Below, piece by piece: positions 3,535 through 63,508 of a stretch of 64,000 bases of DNA (position 1 is its first letter; the number at the start of each line of letters is the position of its first letter). This DNA comes from Escherichia phage 241. The stretch is taken from the sequence record OR924452; one strand, written 5' to 3'. The notes under the pieces were generated by a model. The model was not told the DNA's origin and did not search any database. It saw nothing but the letters and a program-made list of their open reading frames with translations. The position numbers were made by a program, and so were the translations under genes.

Positions 3535-3618
3535 ATACCACACGAACTTCCCCGTCGCCTTCAATCCATGGAGGCGACGTATAATAACAGCCTGCATTAA
3601 CACAAACCGAGGATCGCT

Positions 3619-7309: not shown

Positions 7310-7315
7310 TATTTC

Positions 7316-8897: not shown

Positions 8898-10523
8898 TCA
8901 TGCGTCTTTACCACCAAAGTTGCCGCCATTATCCTCCAGTTCCGGTTTTATATCAATTGGACCAGGACCAGAAGTAGATACCGGAGTTGCCCCAGCGCGT
9001 GATGCAGCACGACCAGCACCTTCAGCATATTTGATGTTGCCTTCAATAGTCTGCGCCACCGACAACTTATCACAAACTATTTCACTAGCCAGTATTTTAG
9101 GCACTTTTAAAGTATTGGAAACTTCCAACATCTCACAGATGATACGCATCACGTTTTGCGCCTGAATTTCGGCCAGCTGTGAAAATTTCATCAACGCCGT
9201 GCCAGCAACCACATTGGAGTAGTTCGATGAATGTAGATGATAGACCTCACCTGTCTTGCGCTGAACTTCAGTCCCACCAATGGTCAGGTTGTGATCACGA
9301 CCAACATAGTAACGTTTGTCAAACATCGTCAGATCATAATGATCTTTGACTGATTTATTGACCACGTCCCCGTCAGGAAGCATCTGCTTATAAGACCCCG
9401 AGGAGTGCATCCAATGGAGACGTTCCCCGCCTGGTGTGTCATCAACCTCCATGATATGCCCTGACCGAGATGCCATGACATTGTTGTAAGGATAACGAGA
9501 CCCGCCAGCAGAAGGAACCGACACCTCTCCTGTGTTATCAATATCTTGAACACGCCCAGAAGGAGGCGGAGTTTCCTGAACTTTTGGTGTACGATCAGGG
9601 ATTGGCTCAGACCATTTACCATTTTGTTGTGTAGGAGCCGCCGATGCTGTCGTAGCAGGACCAGGCCAACGATAACCCAACACAGATGAGCGGCTGAAGC
9701 GACTCACCTTCACAGAATCTGATTGGTTGCCTCCAATACACCAAACATAATTGGCATCGAATTTCTGTACAAACGCAACGTGTCCAAATGTTGGGTTGTT
9801 GCCACGACGGAATACAACAACTGCGCCGTAACGGGGTTCTGACAAAGGGGAACCCCATTGCAAATATGAACGAGCCAAAGCCGAGCGCGTTGAAGTGTAT
9901 CCTGCTTGGATCAACACCCATCCCACAAATGAAGCGCACCAGCTGACTTCATCTTCCGAAGCGCCCAAAGATGTTGTCTTGTGATATTCCAAAATCCTTG
10001 GGTTATTATTGAATTTGCCAGAATATTCTTTGACACCTAATTCACCACGAGCCACTGTCATCCATTTCTCGGGATCATAACCGTCCACAGGCGGTTGAGG
10101 TTCTGGTTGTGGGTCGTCTTCAATCTTGACAGGAACATTTTCAACGGCGTTATATTTCTGTCTTTCTATAGATTGAACAACCTGGCCCAGCGCCAACGGG
10201 TTTGTGTCTGAACCATCCGTTGGTGTCGCCGCTGGCCAAACCCAGGCGATACGAATATTTTGGTATGCTTCATCCAAAGCAAATCCCATAACATCCGACC
10301 CGACTGTAATACCCGTTGGAGACCAGCCTAAACCTGCCGAGGAGGCGTTGGATGCTGGCATGAGCATTTTACCCCAAGGCAATAATTCGGTAGGTAAGAG
10401 AGTGGTATCTTCCGTGTGTACGCCATAGATGCGCACAGCGACGCGCCCGTTCTGGTCGGGATCATTCACGTCTTCAACGCGCCCGTAAAACCAACGCAAG
10501 TTGTCTAACATATTGAAACCCAT
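8898..10523 (-). CDS. 5: baseplate hub / tail-associated cell-wall hydrolase, gp5-like, with a CHAP/NlpC-P60-type domain in place of the T4 lysozyme domain
   Basis: N-terminus RWFYGRVEDVNDPDQNGRVAVRIYGVHTED resembles the gp5 N-terminal OB domain; central region has a Cys...His pattern (SWCASFVGW ... GHVAFV) typical of CHAP amidase/peptidase domains. Confidence 0.6.
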   Translation of the reverse strand: MGFNMLDNLRWFYGRVEDVNDPDQNGRVAVRIYGVHTEDTTLLPTELLPWGKMLMPASNASSAGLGWSPTGITVGSDVMGFALDEAYQNIRIAWVWPAATPTDGSDTNPLALGQVVQSIERQKYNAVENVPVKIEDDPQPEPQPPVDGYDPEKWMTVARGELGVKEYSGKFNNNPRILEYHKTTSLGASEDEVSWCASFVGWVLIQAGYTSTRSALARSYLQWGSPLSEPRYGAVVVFRRGNNPTFGHVAFVQKFDANYVWCIGGNQSDSVKVSRFSRSSVLGYRWPGPATTASAAPTQQNGKWSEPIPDRTPKVQETPPPSGRVQDIDNTGEVSVPSAGGSRYPYNNVMASRSGHIMEVDDTPGGERLHWMHSSGSYKQMLPDGDVVNKSVKDHYDLTMFDKRYYVGRDHNLTIGGTEVQRKTGEVYHLHSSNYSNVVAGTALMKFSQLAEIQAQNVMRIICEMLEVSNTLKVPKILASEIVCDKLSVAQTIEGNIKYAEGAGRAASRAGATPVSTSGPGPIDIKPELEDNGGNFGGKDA

Positions 10524-11030
10524 TAGTCAATTAGAATCATGGGTTATTTATGGCGGGGATTTGAAATCTGTCGAATAGTAATATTATAGGAAGCTCTGCT
10601 TCCGTTCAACTTTATTCTTTTCGTTTCTACTCGCTGAAGCTCGTAACACCGCCTTGACAGGCAGTCCCATTCCAATGCCATGGAGGCATAAAGGCGAGGA
10701 AAATACTGTACACCTCAGAACATGCGTAGAAAAGGATTATTTTTGCTTCAAAACAAATTCAAACCCCAATTTACACAACACTTACTTCAGCAACAACGGT
10801 GTTATAGCAATTTAAGGTTAAACGTTCCTGTCTTAACCTATAAAACAGGTAAGCAAAGAAAACCCCACATTACGTGGGGTTGGAAGATTTCTTGGACAAA
10901 CGTATCTTTAGTGTCTCTGTTAGCAAATCAAGATGCCAAGGCATCGACTCGCTTATTTCAAATATGCTATAGCCATGTGCCTTTAATTCGTCACACATCA
11001 CAAAGTAGGAGAGTAAATCAATTTCAAAAA

Positions 11031-11834: not shown

Positions 11835-11862
11835 AATGTATCTCCACGGTATATTGTAACCA

Positions 11863-11870
11863 TATTTATA
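11863..11870 (-). promoter_or_regulatory. T4-type late promoter (TATAAATA)
   Basis: Exact TATAAATA on the minus strand about 29 nt upstream of the ATG at 11834. Confidence 0.5.
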
Positions 11871-11883
11871 ATGAGGACCGAAA

Positions 11884-14525: not shown

Positions 14526-14549
14526 CTCAATAGCAAAAGGCAGTATAAT
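14526..14549 (+). promoter_or_regulatory. putative promoter upstream of gp32 (TCAATAG box, 10 nt spacer, TATAAT)
   Basis: CTCAATAG-caaaaggcag-TATAAT, about 70 nt upstream of the gp32 ATG. Confidence 0.35.
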
Positions 14550-16631: not shown

Positions 16632-16665
16632 GATGAGGACTCCATTTAAATAATATATCTGCTGA

Positions 16666-16673
16666 TATTTATA
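16666..16673 (-). promoter_or_regulatory. T4-type late promoter (TATAAATA)
   Basis: Exact TATAAATA on the minus strand about 35 nt upstream of the proposed start at 16631. Confidence 0.5.
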
Positions 16674-16685
16674 AGGAGTTGACAA

Positions 16686-17390: not shown

Positions 17391-17396
17391 TTCTAA

Positions 17397-17430
17397 AAGC
17401 CGTTCTATGGGATAATTCGCGAACGGCTTT
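17397..17430 (+). terminator. rho-independent terminator
   Basis: AAAGCCGTTC...GAACGGCTTT hairpin with T-rich tail. Confidence 0.5.
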
Positions 17431-17452: not shown

Positions 17453-18184
17453 ATGTCATATCTACACAGAATTTTTGGTATTGAATTCAGTTCCAACAGC
17501 GTTCGTTATGACCGCACTCACAAAGACTCCGGCGGCAAGACTGGTTACGAACTTGGATCTCGTTTGGGGTATACTGAAGAGCGCCGCCTGAGCGAAAATT
17601 CTCTTCTCACAGCTATGGGTATTGAATTTGAATCCGAGGCTGCTTTAGATCTGGGGGATGAGGTTCGTTTTGGTAAGCCTGAAGTCTTAGAATTTGTTGA
17701 AGACTTCGTGACAGGTTATACCCATGCCGCTAACAATCGTCGCGCCGCCAATGATGCTGTTGGTAAATTTCATTTTGCTGTGAAATACCTTGCCGACAAG
17801 CGTATTCAAATGGAAGCCGAATTCAGTGAAGAAAACTTGAAAGCAGTTTTCGGAGAGACTGGCGATTTCCTGTTGACAGAAGAATCCGGCACTTCTTCCG
17901 CTCGTCATTTCTTTAGTCAACCGTTTATCGTGAAGGGATGTAAAATTCTGATTGATGAAGAACATGTTTTTGGTATTCATCCGGATGTTGTATACGATGA
18001 AGAGACGTGTCTGATCATTTCCAGATTGTTTAACAGCCTGGCGTACACTTCATATTCATTGATCGAACGCTGTATGGAAGAAGAGCATCGCCAAGTTGTT
18101 GTCAACAAAATTCGCTTACATGTTGAGCAGAATTTTAATGGATTCCATTGCGCGTCTGGTGAGATTCCAAACTTCTACATGTAA
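17453..18184 (+). CDS. hypothetical protein (243 aa)
   Basis: ORF with GAGG RBS. Confidence 0.45.
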   Translation: MSYLHRIFGIEFSSNSVRYDRTHKDSGGKTGYELGSRLGYTEERRLSENSLLTAMGIEFESEAALDLGDEVRFGKPEVLEFVEDFVTGYTHAANNRRAANDAVGKFHFAVKYLADKRIQMEAEFSEENLKAVFGETGDFLLTEESGTSSARHFFSQPFIVKGCKILIDEEHVFGIHPDVVYDEETCLIISRLFNSLAYTSYSLIERCMEEEHRQVVVNKIRLHVEQNFNGFHCASGEIPNFYM

Positions 18185-18489: not shown

Positions 18490-18662
18490 TATTCACGTCA
18501 GTCCGCGCTATTCCAGCGTTCCGTTGTCTAACACAGAAGTGTTAACCAACTTTTCAATAAAAAGTGGTTTACATCTTCTAAAAAGGCAGTATATTAATGT
18601 TCCAGACGCACAGTTGAACATTAAACTGCCAAAGAAGGTTACTACACAAAAGGGTTTTTATT

Positions 18663-19622: not shown

Positions 19623-19694
19623 TTTAACTCAGAAGCATTCAATAGATGAAGGGGCTGCTATAATAGCAGCTCCTTTTGTTTATTGGAGCACACC

Positions 19695-20357
19695 ATGTCG
19701 TATTCGCTCAAAGGGTTGTTGAAGCGCCCCGTACATCTGTTTGTAAAACCACCTGCTGTCGAAGGGGAATATCCGGCACGAGGAGAGTTGTATTACGTTA
19801 AAGGCTCCAACGGTAGCGGCAAGTCCACTGTCCCTTCCTATCTGGCGGAGAATGATCCTCAGGCGTATGTCGTGACCTACAATGGCAAGATCATGCTCAC
19901 AGTTTGCCCTTCCTATAACATTATCTGTATTGGTAAATATGACAAGTCTAAGTCTAAAGGTGTTGATTCCCTGAAAGATACCGAGCAGATGTTGTTCGCC
20001 TTGTCCATTGCTGATCAGCCGGAATATCTGAAATATGACGTGTTGTTTGAAGGAATCATCCCTTCAACTTTGCTCAGCTCATGGATTCCCCGCCTGACGC
20101 GCCCACCGCGCGAATTAGTCGTGCTCTTCATGGACACCCCGCTTGAAACCTGTGTTTCCCGTGTGAAATCACGCAACGGCGGCGCAGACTTCAATGAAAG
20201 CCTGGTTGTCGAAAAGTGGGAGAGAGTTCATGACCACCGCCAACGGCATAAAGGCTTGTTCCCTACCGTTCCCGCAGGTATGATGAAGTCCAATGGCCTG
20301 ACTATAGAGCAGGCTGTTTTTGCGTTTCTCAATCGCGATTTTGGGAGTATTGATTGA
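19695..20357 (+). CDS. P-loop kinase-fold protein (candidate nucleotide or DNA-base kinase)
   Basis: Walker A GSNGSGKST; about 220 aa; TTGGAG RBS; directly upstream of the pyrimidine hydroxymethylase. Confidence 0.55.
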   Translation: MSYSLKGLLKRPVHLFVKPPAVEGEYPARGELYYVKGSNGSGKSTVPSYLAENDPQAYVVTYNGKIMLTVCPSYNIICIGKYDKSKSKGVDSLKDTEQMLFALSIADQPEYLKYDVLFEGIIPSTLLSSWIPRLTRPPRELVVLFMDTPLETCVSRVKSRNGGADFNESLVVEKWERVHDHRQRHKGLFPTVPAGMMKSNGLTIEQAVFAFLNRDFGSID

Positions 20358-25855: not shown

Positions 25856-25918
25856 CTTCAATAATGGTGGTCATAGGGTATAATCTCTATGATCTGAATA
25901 TTAACCCAGGAGCACATC

Positions 25919-26251
25919 ATGTCGGATGTTGCATTTATAGCTGACCTGATTCAGGCGGCACAACAGGTGTGCCAGTCTGGACAAACCAGTCTCAGTCTGT
26001 CTACAGAGCAGACATTGGAATTTTACAAGAATCGACGGCATTGGGGTAAGGCTGTTAAGATACATTGCGAACCAGGAGAATTGGTTCAGCTCGATCTTCC
26101 ATCTTTCCCGTTGCCAGTGCAGACCAATACTCAGGAATATTATAAAGTTGAAGGTGTCGACATTATTCCTAAGTTTGGTTTCCACAGTATCGTTTATTTC
26201 TTCCTGCGCCGTTTGGGGACCAGTATTGGCCCACTCGGTTCTCGTCATTAA
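25919..26251 (+). CDS. hypothetical protein (110 aa)
   Basis: ORF with CAGGAG RBS. Confidence 0.45.
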   Translation: MSDVAFIADLIQAAQQVCQSGQTSLSLSTEQTLEFYKNRRHWGKAVKIHCEPGELVQLDLPSFPLPVQTNTQEYYKVEGVDIIPKFGFHSIVYFFLRRLGTSIGPLGSRH

Positions 26252-28201: not shown

Positions 28202-28413
28202 TGGAATGTTCATGCGGAGGGCAAGGCACAAGTGCATACTTGCCATTTAACACCGTCAAGGAAGCCGAAGACGCCGGATATGCCGTTGACAAGGCTCCCT
28301 GTGTAATTGCCATTAAGGATTGTCCGTGCTGTAAGAGGCACTCTCAGGACTTGCATTACTCACCTGACGCTCGTTCAGACAAAGTTAACCTTCTTTCACT
28401 GATGAGGAAGTAA
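28201..28413 (+). CDS. small Cys-rich protein (70 aa)
   Basis: CSCGG...CPCCKRH motifs. Confidence 0.4.
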   Translation: MECSCGGQGTSAYLPFNTVKEAEDAGYAVDKAPCVIAIKDCPCCKRHSQDLHYSPDARSDKVNLLSLMRK

Positions 28414-28414
28414 A

Positions 28415-28762
28415 ATGCGCAAGTATTTGAATTGGCTATTGGGTAAGCCCCTGAGCCACGAGGTTCGTTGTTTGATAGACGCAATCGACTCGGATGAAGT
28501 GAAATGGAACGGGGTGCAGTTTATCGGGATCGATGTGATCGTTTATAACGGCGTCAGAGTGGCTGCTTATACGGTCAACAGCTGTTCAGGATACACCGTT
28601 GATATTGGGTTCTGCTCTAACTGTTTACCCCACCATGAGGCCAAAGCTGTGTACAAAGCTCTCGTGCGCCACAACAAGAGACGCCGCAAGCGGGTTGAGG
28701 CTCAGGTTGAGGTACACAACCGCGAGGAAGTTCACAAGGCTCTTGGCTTCCATAACAAATAA
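28415..28762 (+). CDS. hypothetical protein (115 aa)
   Basis: ORF. Confidence 0.4.
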   Translation: MRKYLNWLLGKPLSHEVRCLIDAIDSDEVKWNGVQFIGIDVIVYNGVRVAAYTVNSCSGYTVDIGFCSNCLPHHEAKAVYKALVRHNKRRRKRVEAQVEVHNREEVHKALGFHNK

Positions 28763-28817
28763 TTCAATAACTGTTTCACCCATATAATACATGGGAATTT
28801 ACAGAAGGAACACAACT

Positions 28818-29159
28818 ATGACCACACTCGTAGAAACATTATTCCCAGGATGCACCCTTGGGCGCGGCGGTAGCGAAGCCAACGGGCTGGCAATTGACGC
28901 CGAACCACAGAACTGCGTTGTTATCGACAAATTCCATGACAATCACTATCCTCTGAGCCATCGCCGTGATCATTATCTGGTTTCTGTGGGTGAAACATTG
29001 GTCTCTCTTCGTATTTGTGAAGCAATGCCTGGTTATGGTTATGACGCATTTGCATATATCCATAGCGTTTCCAATGGGGAAATGGGGAAAGAAACCCTGA
29101 CTGAACAATTCAAAGGATGGAAAGAATCTTTTACGTCCGTCAAACCGCCGAAGAAATAA
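28818..29159 (+). CDS. hypothetical protein (113 aa)
   Basis: AGAAGGAAC RBS before internal ATG at 28818. Confidence 0.45.
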   Translation: MTTLVETLFPGCTLGRGGSEANGLAIDAEPQNCVVIDKFHDNHYPLSHRRDHYLVSVGETLVSLRICEAMPGYGYDAFAYIHSVSNGEMGKETLTEQFKGWKESFTSVKPPKK

Positions 29160-29174
29160 TTGAGGATTATATTA

Positions 29175-29783
29175 ATGTCACTGAAAAATTTACTGAAACG
29201 CATCTTCACTACCGTTGAAGCGAACGTCACTGCAGGTTTAGATAAACTGACTGATACTGAAAAGCGTCTGAATTTGGCTGCACGGAAACTATCTGATCAC
29301 ATCCGACGTTTAGAAGAAACTCGTGTAACTAATGTCCGTCAAGGCGTTAAGATGAAGAAAACAGCTGATGAAAATCTAGCAGAAGCCATTAAGCGGGAAA
29401 CAATTTTGAAAGACGCTATTGCCCGTGGTGTAACGCCTACTCGTGCCGATGCGTTAATCATTCTTCATCGCCGTCGTATGGGCGAAGCCTTATTGGACAA
29501 AGTCAAAGAGATTGAATCTGGTAGCGTAAAATTAAATTCGGCAATTGTTCAACTGGGCGACAAATTGGATGTGGTTAAGTCTAATCTAGAATTAGTTCGC
29601 ATTCAGAAAGAATCCAATGATCTCGGATTAACTCTACCAGAAGATATCGATTATGCTGCTGATATGGTCAGCATTGACGTTGATTCTATTCTGCGTGAAG
29701 CCGAAATTGCCGACTCCAATTATTCATCCAATAATCCGTCAACGATTGAAGCGGACAACTATCTGGCAAGTTTATCAAAATAA
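29175..29783 (+). CDS. coiled-coil protein (PspA/IM30-like?)
   Basis: TGAGGA RBS before ATG at 29175; heptad-rich sequence. Confidence 0.4.
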   Translation: MSLKNLLKRIFTTVEANVTAGLDKLTDTEKRLNLAARKLSDHIRRLEETRVTNVRQGVKMKKTADENLAEAIKRETILKDAIARGVTPTRADALIILHRRRMGEALLDKVKEIESGSVKLNSAIVQLGDKLDVVKSNLELVRIQKESNDLGLTLPEDIDYAADMVSIDVDSILREAEIADSNYSSNNPSTIEADNYLASLSK

Positions 29784-29819
29784 TTTGGGAGGGGCTTTGC
29801 CCCTTCATTCGGGGGATTT

Positions 29820-30407
29820 ATGGTAATTATCGACTCAACAGATATTTTGATTGCGGGTTTTAGTATTATTGGTGTCTTCACCCTCGTGCGTAGTATCAAA
29901 AAATCAATTCGAAAAAGGGTTGTTGATGTTGTTGCCCCAGATTTACAATTAGAAGATACCAAAGAAAATTCTAAAGATATAAAACAAATTCTGGCCAGCC
30001 GTGTATCCAAACGATTGTCACAGAAAATAGAAGATTTCAGTTTGGAGCAAAAAGACCTTAATACTACTCCTGAAGAATATTTCCAATATTTCATGGAAGG
30101 TTTGGGTTGGCCATCCATAGAATATTGTATCTTAAGAACGGATTATTTCTATGTGACCATAGTATGTAAAAGTGATCAACAGGTTGCCGAGCCTAATCAA
30201 AGGGTATGGTTTTATAATTATTCAGATTTAGATAATCACTTTTTAGTGTCTCTTCATAGATTGTTTAAGGAGTATATGGACAACGGAAGCACACAAACCC
30301 CCACTGTGGAAACAGTAGAATCTATTGTGGAACGTGCCCGCGCCCGTAATGAATCGAAATCGGATTACCTTTCGAAGTATGGATTTATTTGGAAGGAAGA
30401 CATATGA
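29820..30407 (+). CDS. membrane-anchored hypothetical protein (195 aa)
   Basis: GGGGGA RBS; N-terminal TM helix. Confidence 0.45.
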   Translation: MVIIDSTDILIAGFSIIGVFTLVRSIKKSIRKRVVDVVAPDLQLEDTKENSKDIKQILASRVSKRLSQKIEDFSLEQKDLNTTPEEYFQYFMEGLGWPSIEYCILRTDYFYVTIVCKSDQQVAEPNQRVWFYNYSDLDNHFLVSLHRLFKEYMDNGSTQTPTVETVESIVERARARNESKSDYLSKYGFIWKEDI

Positions 30408-30580
30408 AAGACATCTTATTTTATATTTGGTCTACAATATCTACAATATTAATCCTTGGGATCTTGATTATTCTTTTTCAACCATTTTGGGCCGAATGGA
30501 TCAATAATAGAAGAATGCGCAAATATGGGGTAGATGTTTTACAGATTGTTGACAAGGCCAGAGAAAGACACGGAAAATAA
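30404..30580 (+). CDS. small membrane protein (58 aa)
   Basis: GGAAGGAAG RBS; overlapping start/stop; hydrophobic. Confidence 0.4.
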   Translation: MKDILFYIWSTISTILILGILIILFQPFWAEWINNRRMRKYGVDVLQIVDKARERHGK

Positions 30581-30582
30581 AT

Positions 30583-30607
30583 CTATTGAAGTCTCTGGGG
30601 TTATAAT
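30583..30607 (+). promoter_or_regulatory. putative promoter (CTATTGAAG box, 10 nt spacer, TATAAT) upstream of DNA ligase
   Basis: CTATTGAAG-tctctggggt-TATAAT, 27 nt before the ligase ATG. Confidence 0.45.
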
Positions 30608-30633
30608 AACAGGACGAATAACCCTGGAGACAC

Positions 30634-40622: not shown

Positions 40623-40650
40623 GTTTGTCTCTCCCAATAAATTAAGGGGA

Positions 40651-40675
40651 AGTATACCTTCCCCTTCTTCAATAA
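40651..40675 (-). promoter_or_regulatory. putative promoter (TTATTGAAG box, 10 nt spacer, TATACT) embedded in a terminator hairpin
   Basis: Minus strand TTATTGAAG-aaggggaagg-TATACT, 28 nt upstream of ATG 40622; hairpin GGGGAAGG-tatac-CTTCCCC. Confidence 0.45.
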
Positions 40676-46172: not shown

Positions 46173-46202
46173 GGTATTATCTCAATATGGGGTTAGGCGG
46201 CA

Positions 46203-46227
46203 ATTATACCGCCATTTTCTTCAATAG
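46203..46227 (-). promoter_or_regulatory. putative promoter (CTATTGAAG box, 10 nt spacer, TATAAT) with the -10 in a hairpin loop
   Basis: Minus strand CTATTGAAG-aaaatggcgg-TATAAT; hairpin GGCGG-tataattg-CCGCC; about 30 nt upstream of ATG 46172. Confidence 0.45.
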
Positions 46228-60428: not shown

Positions 60429-60434
60429 AAAAAA

Positions 60435-60468
60435 GAGGATAGAGCAATAATACCCTATCCCCCTTTAT
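60435..60468 (-). terminator. terminator hairpin with AATAAT loop; one of two near-identical intergenic elements
   Basis: GAGGATAG-agcaataatacc-CTATCC with flanking T-tract on the minus strand; followed by the shared TTTATTGAAGAACG. Confidence 0.5.
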
Positions 60469-60478
60469 TGAAGAACGA

Positions 60479-63221: not shown

Positions 63222-63244
63222 GATGTATTTCCTTGTAAAAGAAA

Positions 63245-63274
63245 GGGGAACGGGCTAATAATAACCCATTCCCC
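63245..63274 (-). terminator. terminator hairpin with TAATAATAA loop; second copy of the repeated intergenic element
   Basis: GGGGAACGGG-ctaataataa-CCCATTCCCC, T-rich flank on the minus strand. Confidence 0.5.
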
Positions 63275-63302
63275 TTTATTGAAGAACGCAATCGCAGTCA
63301 GA

Positions 63303-63470
63303 TTACTTTTTCTTCAGCTCTTCCAGCTTGGCTTCAATTTGGTCCAGGATTTCTTTACCTTTCTGGACGATGGCTTCACCGTCTTGCGCGTGTTTACGAA
63401 AAACCAGAGCGCCAGCAATGAAACCAACAACCACGCCTGGGAGCGCATACACCAACAGATCTTGTAACAT
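63303..63470 (-). CDS. small membrane-anchored protein (55 aa), below the ORF-track cutoff
   Basis: GAGGA RBS; translation MLQDLLVYALPGVVVGFIAGALVFRKHAQDGEAIVQKGKEILDQIEAKLEELKKK. Confidence 0.3.
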   Translation of the reverse strand: MLQDLLVYALPGVVVGFIAGALVFRKHAQDGEAIVQKGKEILDQIEAKLEELKKK

Positions 63471-63508
63471 GATTTATATCCTCACTTTTATAAGCAAGGA
63501 TATTTATA

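Follow-up and report, generated by a model that had tools for sequence, protein, structure and literature searches.

The hairpin at 19651-19673 combines a G+C-rich stem and a TATAAT-like centre within a single intergenic spacer, and it raises the question of whether one short element ends the transcript of the upstream gene, starts that of the downstream gene, or does both. In the GenBank records of Maynard and LIMEstone1, this hairpin or its orthologue is already annotated as a terminator, and nothing more. A preliminary description of the window (i.e. the whole 64-kb stretch of DNA analysed here) had listed seven intergenic hairpins of this design.

The early genome papers on ViI-like phages found just a few sigma-70 promoters. 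According to the CBA120 paper, informatics failed to locate the early and middle promoters of these phages (PMC3184105), and no such promoter class was added by the AG3 (PMC3121705) and LIMEstone (PMC3296691) papers. The late-promoter consensus of the family was also stated in 2011 as not identified. Our literature search, which was not exhaustive, retrieved neither a description of the upstream box reported below, or of cassettes resembling the promoter-early stem-loops (PeSLs) of T4-type phages, in Ackermannviridae or Kuttervirus, nor any mapping of transcript 5' or 3' ends in a phage of the Ackermannviridae.

Genomic context of the hairpins

A 2.8-kb stretch around the 19651 hairpin matches Salmonella phages PS5, Maynard and Vi01, as well as Escherichia phage ECML-4, at 99.6-99.9% identity, with weaker matches in Klebsiella, Dickeya, Shigella and Serratia phages. 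Sequence comparison thus indicates that the window is part of a Kuttervirus genome (ViI-like, Ackermannviridae). It contains replication and nucleotide-metabolism genes in long co-directional arrays, and the few late structural genes lie on the strand opposite to those arrays. The eight sites with a hairpin cassette are all located between co-directional genes (8/8), with a Shine-Dalgarno sequence and a start codon downstream. The earlier statement that the hairpins lie directly upstream of genes is borne out, the -10-like hexamer being found 26-36 nt ahead of the start codon.

Maynard and the window are collinear except for a few indels. Three of about six indels, a small sample, end exactly at a cassette made of the box and a -10 hexamer:

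28351-28816, indel relative to Maynard, ends at the 28779 cassette
29144-30575, indel relative to Maynard, ends at the 30581 cassette
32057/32067, indel relative to Maynard, ends at the 32093 cassette

The 28779 site lies within a 466-bp segment absent from Maynard, and a 1.4-kb insertion relative to this phage has the 30581 cassette as its right boundary. A separate segment of 519 nt (10512-11030, minus strand) is devoid of annotated genes in Maynard; it holds a terminator-like hairpin (10861-10881) and, near its end, a late-type promoter.

Hairpins enclosing a -10-like hexamer

Eight cassettes and a related one were delineated as follows, cassette 8 and the related one being absent from the preliminary description:

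19638-19684, plus strand, cassette 1: box TTCAATAG at 19638-19645, TATAAT at 19659-19664, T-run at 19674-19684; next gene starts at 19695
19648-19676, plus strand, hairpin of cassette 1: 13 bp, loop TAA; core GGGGCTGC/GCAGCTCC at 19651-19673
25857-25894, plus strand, cassette 2: box TTCAATAA at 25857-25864, TATAAT at 25879-25884, no U-tract; next gene starts at 25919
25869-25894, plus strand, hairpin of cassette 2: GGTCATAG/CTATGATC
28763-28795, plus strand, cassette 3 (weak): box TTCAATAA at 28763-28770, CCCAT/ATGGG hairpin at 28779-28795, TATAAT at 28783-28788, no U-tract
40644-40674, minus strand, cassette 4: box TATTGAAG at 40667-40674, TATACT at 40651-40656, weak T-rich tail TTAATTTATT
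40644-40666, minus strand, hairpin of cassette 4: AAGGGGAAG-GTATA-CTTCCCCTT
46196-46226, minus strand, cassette 5: box TATTGAAG at 46219-46226, overlapping the upstream stop codon, TATAAT at 46203-46208, no U-tract
46196-46213, minus strand, hairpin of cassette 5: GGCGGTA/TGCCGCC
60429-60472, minus strand, cassette 6: box TTCAATAA at 60465-60472, 16-bp hairpin at 60431-60466, TATTAT at 60447-60452, T-run at 60429-60434
63237-63283, minus strand, cassette 7: box TTCAATAA at 63276-63283, 16-bp hairpin at 63242-63277, TATTAT at 63258-63263, T-run at 63237-63244
17391-17430, plus strand, cassette 8 (absent from the preliminary description): box-like TTCTAAAA at 17391-17398, GATAAT at 17411-17416; between late gene gp2 and a gene starting at 17453
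17396-17430, plus strand, hairpin of cassette 8: AAAGCCGTTC/GAACGGCTTT
30584-30631, plus strand, related cassette (30581): box TATTGAAG at 30584-30591, TATAAT at 30602-30607 in the 5' arm
30591-30604/30618-30631, plus strand, hairpin of the related cassette: 14 bp; GGAG, the Shine-Dalgarno of the DNA ligase gene, is in the 3' arm

Such hairpins are far more frequent than in shuffled DNA. The whole window has 15 hairpins that enclose a -10-like hexamer in a stem of 7 bp or more with no fewer than 3 G-C pairs, versus 2.15 ± 1.5 in 100 dinucleotide shuffles. Sense-oriented intergenic DNA has seven versus 0.2 ± 0.46, a number reached in 0 of 1000 shuffles in which only the flanks of the hexamer were shuffled. 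Furthermore, about 19 other intergenic terminator hairpins of the window have short G+C-flanked loops of the tetraloop type and none carries TATAAT; therefore, the TATAAT-centred hairpins form a separate class. A scan of the whole window with Rfam gave no family at the gathering threshold, and the 14-mer CTTCAATAAAGGGG, scanned against viral contigs, matched mostly unrelated contigs.

Seven of the eight cassettes have a stable RNA stem-loop, with folding energies of -12.7 to -26.5 kcal/mol and z-scores versus shuffles of -3 to -6.8: 19651 (-19.7 kcal/mol, z -5.5; also the top terminator-like match of a 20-kb scan), 25872 (-12.9, z -4.5), 40645 (-16.0, z -3.0), 46196 (-12.7, z -4.3), 60435 (-21.0, z -6.6), 63245 (-26.5, z -6.8) and 17391 (-15.7, z -4.8). 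The related 30581 hairpin reaches -20.3 kcal/mol (z -5.2). The hairpin at 28779 fails: its fold of -5.6 kcal/mol (z -0.84) is equalled by 42 of 200 shuffles and is not significant alone. Cassettes 6 (60435) and 7 (63245) have the 17-mer GTTCTTCAATAAAGGGG in common. Stems measure 7-16 bp and, in the predicted folds, TATAAT is partly paired (TA with TA).

All seven hairpins of the preliminary description are therefore present and, as a class, far above chance; six of them are stable and the one at 28779 does no better than shuffled sequence. Their sequences were right, two positions being off by one: the first hairpin ends at 19673, not 19672, and the 40645 hairpin spans 40644-40666. Loops had been drawn at 5-10 nt, and this has to be revised to 3-6 nt according to the predicted folds.

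An upstream box and a -10 hexamer as probable promoter signals

Every TATAAT-centred hairpin is preceded by a conserved box that the preliminary description had not noted: it is TTCAATAA or, at 40645, 46196 and 30581, its variant TATTGAAG; further variants are TTCAATAG at 19651 and the looser TTCTAAAA at 17391. The box is centred near -28 and, depending on the site, is separated from the -10 by 10-14 nt. The -10 box has the consensus GTATAAT, and TATAAT or a 5/6 match to it is found at every site. Both motifs are about 8-fold enriched in sense intergenic DNA (12 TATAAT versus 1.44 expected; 12 TTCAATA versus 1.41), where the canonical -35 TTGACA shows no enrichment (1 versus 1.63). The arrangement TTCAATA-N10-16-(-10-like) occurs nine times in the window versus 0.5 expected in shuffles, and 3-5 times per roughly 14-21 kb in the loci of other genera versus about 0.1. 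In orthologues, the box and the -10 are retained and the spacer differs in sequence and by ±1 nt in length.

The two motifs are also found together without an enclosing hairpin (592, 3560, 14526, 26627 and 32093) or just after a separate tetraloop-type terminator (7310, 26627, 32093, 52146 and 58771). At 14526-14549 (plus strand), a predicted promoter upstream of the single-stranded DNA binding protein gene illustrates the gain or loss of a stem-loop at a fixed promoter: no hairpin is found in Kuttervirus, and CGGGG-TATAATTA-CCCCG encloses the -10 in other genera. Further cassettes of like design are present elsewhere in related genomes.

The loop hexamer is probably a real -10 box, the strongest argument for this reading being the conserved box upstream. 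The -10 is less certain at 63245, because the loop is A+T-only but variable in relatives (TTAATAATA, TTAATATTA) and is not kept as a -10. Two other readings of the promoter signals were rejected. A canonical sigma-70 -35 is not found at the cassettes, where the best hexamers at 16-18 nt match TTGACA at 2-3 of 6 positions. The loops do not read as late promoters either, since late genes carry ATAAATA and the loops do not. This distinct, T4-like motif occurs five times in 64 kb (both strands), four of the five being in sense intergenic DNA, and its (T)ATAAATA form lies upstream of baseplate, tail-tube and gp5-like genes and of a small ORF:

11835-11883, late-type motif site
16632-16685, late-type motif site
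10512-10560, late-type motif site
63471-63508, late-type motif site

Since late genes use ATAAATA, the predicted box-type promoters would serve pre-replicative genes.

The small ORF (63303-63470, minus strand, 55 aa) lies within a 287-nt gap that was first taken as intergenic, and cassette 7 comes after it. It has late-type promoters, with two TATAAATA-type motifs upstream, encodes an N-terminal hydrophobic segment and matches PHROG 3879 (unknown function; E = 3.5e-32). Elsewhere, the sole good canonical sigma-70 match of its region (TTTACA-N16-TATATT; 18568-18595, plus strand) is a putative early promoter in the LIMEstone1 annotation; a TTCAATAA box is located 29 nt upstream of its -10.

TTCAATA and TATTGAA, the two orientations of the box, are both found, and in some relatives the two forms are fused as the perfect palindrome TTCAATTGAA (58829 region, minus strand). 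Placing both half-forms in the 10-bp TTCAATTGAA frame brings the TATTGAAG-type sites (TTGAA 16 nt from the -10) and the majority of TTCAATAA-type sites (18-22 nt) into a single register, with its centre near -28. This common register suggests that a dimeric factor may bind there. Very tentatively, the box could be the site at which a phage (or host) factor redirects sigma-70 RNA polymerase to ViI-specific pre-replicative promoters without MotA or AsiA. If so, this would answer the question, raised in 2011, of how early and middle genes are controlled in ViI-like phages. The presence of the -10 inside a terminator hairpin would then also allow polymerase released at the U-tract to pass straight to the overlapping promoter.

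These signals bear directly on the simplest account of the hairpins, namely that they are ordinary intrinsic terminators or attenuators whose likeness to a -10 is incidental, downstream genes being served by read-through or by other promoters. This account agrees with the terminator-only annotation of the 19651 hairpin in two GenBank records, with the textbook association of hairpin and U-tract at 19651, 60435 and 63245, with predicted loops of 3-4 nt in which TATAAT is partly paired, and with the 63245 loop that is not kept as a -10. It nevertheless appears unlikely, since TATAAT is missing from the approximately 19 other terminator hairpins and marks a distinct class, each member of which has a TTCAATAA or TATTGAAG box upstream. 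Moreover, the box and TATAAT are also found, and conserved between genera, at hairpin-free sites, both are enriched in sense intergenic DNA, and several members of the class have no U-tract.

Termination signals and proposed mechanism

A U-tract, defined as at least 5 T in the 8 nt directly after a G+C-rich hairpin, is clear only at 19651, 60435 and 63245. It is borderline at 40645 and at 17391, where it is missing in other genera. No U-tract is found at 25872, 28779 and 46196; therefore, these three hairpins are not canonical terminators.

We consider it fairly probable (roughly 0.6) that the elements of this ViI-like phage are composite promoter-terminator cassettes of the same build as the PeSLs and the related PmSLs of T4-type phages. 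The hairpins, their excess over chance, their conservation as sense RNA and a box and -10 motif with a strand and position bias are direct results; promoter activity, termination, the start site and a factor reading the box are inferred. In the RNA arriving from the upstream gene, the G+C-rich inverted repeat would fold as a hairpin. At sites with a U-tract (19651, 60435, 63245 and, weakly, 40645 and 17391), this hairpin would act as an intrinsic terminator for the upstream transcript; at 25872 and 46196, which have none, pausing or attenuation of transcription or protection of the 3' end is more likely. At the DNA level, the A+T-rich centre of this repeat would be a sigma-70-type -10 box. Together with the box (TTCAATAA or TATTGAAG), it would initiate a second transcript some 7 nt further downstream, the start lying in the 3' arm or at its end. 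Devoid of the 5' arm, this transcript would form no hairpin and would not be terminated. Each cassette would thereby reset transcription between neighbour genes and open a new, separately controlled transcript within 50-70 nt.

Another role considered for the hairpins, sequestration of the ribosome-binding site, was rejected for the seven listed initially, the Shine-Dalgarno being outside the stems, 9-25 nt beyond them. The exception is the 30581 cassette, where a read-through RNA would hide the ribosome-binding site and a transcript from the internal promoter would not.

The preliminary description had proposed that these elements terminate upstream transcription and present a -10 for re-initiation. 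Selection of the stems as sense RNA, conservation of the box and -10 and the PeSL precedent speak for this proposal, which is partly supported; its termination part is weakened in that only three of the seven hairpins have a proper U-tract, and the 28779 hairpin is not significant. The alternative that it also offered, a role in RNA stability or processing, is equally good for the three hairpins without a U-tract (25872, 46196 and 28779).

Extended to the whole class, this alternative would make the hairpin a guard of the upstream 3' end (or of the downstream 5' end) after an endonuclease cut in the A+U-rich flank. The U-tract-less hairpins (25872, 46196 and, in other genera, 17391) are indeed kept by compensation and sense-strand G.U pairs, and the strand-specific A+U-rich box beside the stem could be a cleavage site. 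However, such a role explains neither why TATAAT is conserved and lies at a fixed distance from the box nor why the motif pair is present at hairpin-free sites, and no known RNA family matches. As a sole explanation we regard it as improbable; it is compatible with the composite promoter-terminator cassette rather than opposed to it.

Conservation of the stems as sense-strand RNA

Orthologous regions were compared in about 20 Ackermannviridae genomes, in which the neighbouring proteins share 65-100% identity. Of 83 orthologous sequences, 68 have a sense RNA more stable than the antisense, by 3.9 kcal/mol on average, because of sense-strand G.U pairs. The comparison indicates that the stems are kept between Ackermannviridae genera by compensatory and G.U changes and that the structure acts in RNA.

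The clearest pattern of pairing is that of the 25872 stem, which has compensatory double changes at three pairs in the orthologue alignment and 96.6% of cells paired, versus 28-46% when the partner is slid; its sense RNA is much more stable than the antisense in every genus. Because covariation keeps this stem without a U-tract, the hairpin must have another role in read-through RNA, attenuation and 3'-end protection being the obvious candidates. At 40645, GGGGAAG/CTTCCCC is replaced in other genera by GGAGAGTA/TACTCTCC or GGGGGAGTA/TACTTCCCC, i.e. three compensatory double changes; as the MAFFT alignment is out of structural register there, compensation was judged by eye and from per-sequence folds, not by pair counting. 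The 19651 element is nearly invariant between genera, and the only changes in its stem, as in that of 60435, are from G.U to A-U or G-C. The 60435 hairpin has several sense-strand G.U pairs and a sense fold better than the antisense by 3.0-13.1 kcal/mol, and its loop GGTATTATTGC is unchanged in all genera compared. In relatives, a T.G wobble of the 46196 stem becomes T-A and its loop becomes TATTAT; the 30581 hairpin is also kept between genera, with wobble-to-Watson-Crick changes. The 63245 stem has a C.A mismatch in one relative. At 28779, no covariation was observed, a single orthologue having been found.

The picture is mixed at 17391, where half of the sequences show one compensatory change, from G-C to C-G, and where the antisense fold is slightly better than the sense fold in Kuttervirus. 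The latter point stands against the cassette reading, as does the fact that an A+T-centred palindrome yields TATAAT-like strings fairly easily; further points against it are the partial pairing of TATAAT in the folded RNA and a box that is no sigma-70 -35 and lies at no constant distance from the -10.

The sense-strand asymmetry and the compensation disfavour a DNA cruciform or a protein-binding palindrome. The inverted repeats, centred on the -10, could in principle act in DNA, either as an operator for a dimeric regulator over the -10 or as a cruciform or hairpin promoter of the N4 type; a dimeric protein would be consistent with a box that has both orientations and, in some relatives, is the palindrome TTCAATTGAA. 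We find such a role very improbable. The sequence of the stem is not the same at different sites and its changes are compensatory, so that pairing is kept rather than sequence, and the common G.T pairs of the sense strand are C.A mismatches on the opposite strand, which disfavours a two-sided cruciform. Early promoters of N4 have 5-7 bp stems and 3-nt loops and need a virion RNA polymerase; to our knowledge, none has been reported for ViI-like phages. The stems of 7-16 bp and loops of 3-6 nt found here differ from this model, and the asymmetry between sense and antisense favours RNA. Finally, a chance likeness of a few palindromes in A+T-rich spacers, which the 28779 hairpin taken alone would allow, is refuted for the class as a whole by the shuffle tests, covariation and cross-genus conservation and has almost no credibility.

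Implications for ViI-like phages

The box and -10 motif provide a concrete candidate consensus for pre-replicative promoters of ViI-like phages, and the question raised in 2011 can now be directly tested. These phages are widely studied for the biocontrol of Salmonella, E. coli O157, Klebsiella and Dickeya. In addition, features labelled solely "terminator" in GenBank records of Ackermannviridae probably hold a promoter too. In T4-type phages, PeSL-type cassettes are thought to drive modular gene shuffling, and the few cassettes found here at the ends of indels would match this view.

Comparison with known systems

As in intrinsic terminators, a G+C-rich hairpin right after a stop codon is followed by a U-tract at 19651, 60435 and 63245 (-20 to -26 kcal/mol). 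Unlike in these terminators, the centre of the hairpin is TATAAT-like and not a tetraloop, and the hairpins at 25872, 46196 and 28779 have no U-tract.

In T4 genes e, soc and I-TevI, a promoter located in a hairpin frees the ribosome-binding site that a read-through RNA hides, these internal promoters being late. The 30581 cassette is built alike, with TATAAT in the 5' arm and the Shine-Dalgarno in the 3' arm. By contrast, the Shine-Dalgarno of the seven hairpins listed initially is not sequestered, and the internal promoters of T4 are late. Middle promoters of T4 associate a MotA box, (a/t)(a/t)(a/t)TGCTT(t/c)A, near -30 with a sigma-70 -10. The cassettes resemble them in that a good -10 is accompanied by a conserved box around -28 to -30 and not by a canonical -35, and in that they would serve replication and nucleotide-metabolism genes (see PMC4122927 for the T4 promoters). 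They differ in the box itself, which is TTCAATAA/TATTGAAG and not TGCTTtA, and no MotA or AsiA homologues have been reported in ViI-like phages (PMC3184105).

The closest counterparts are the PeSLs of the T4-type phages RB49 and phi1, which combine sigma-70-like promoters with polyG/polyC stem-loops containing G-T pairs and whose terminator and promoter activities were shown by lacZ assays (PMC2839356). The position of the stem-loop relative to the promoter varies, one subclass having it over the -10 box (PMC2839356). Group-specific variants and Mot-box-type PmSLs followed in a later paper (Comeau et al. 2014, PMC4122927); between them, the two papers describe PeSLs and PmSLs of RB49/phi1, T4/PST and KVP40/nt-1 (Arbiol et al. 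2010, PMC2839356; PMC4122927). Differences from these elements exist. The upstream element here is TTCAATAA/TATTGAAG at 10-14 nt, and neither TTGACA at 17 nt nor a TGCTT Mot box. Many of the cassettes flank conserved replication and nucleotide-metabolism genes and not only hyperplastic regions. Furthermore, activities have been assayed for PeSLs and are predicted for the Ackermannviridae cassettes.

The similarities concern the design. Like PeSLs and PmSLs, the cassettes are intergenic, between small co-directional genes, and present a sigma-70-type -10 followed by a Shine-Dalgarno and a start codon. Like PeSLs, they have a stable stem-loop in which G-runs pair with C-runs, with some G-T pairs, and all five stem-loop positions can be assigned in the 64-kb window: the stem-loop lies over the -10 at eight sites, over the box at 3560, from the -10 into the leader at 30581, and upstream of the predicted promoter at 7310, 26627, 32093, 52146 and 58771. 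Repetition within the genome and an association with indels between close relatives, as described for PeSLs, may also apply: 60435 and 63245 share a 17-mer, and 3 of about 6 indels relative to Maynard, a small sample, end at a cassette. The design is already known from T4-type phages, and its occurrence in Ackermannviridae would extend it beyond the T4 group proper.
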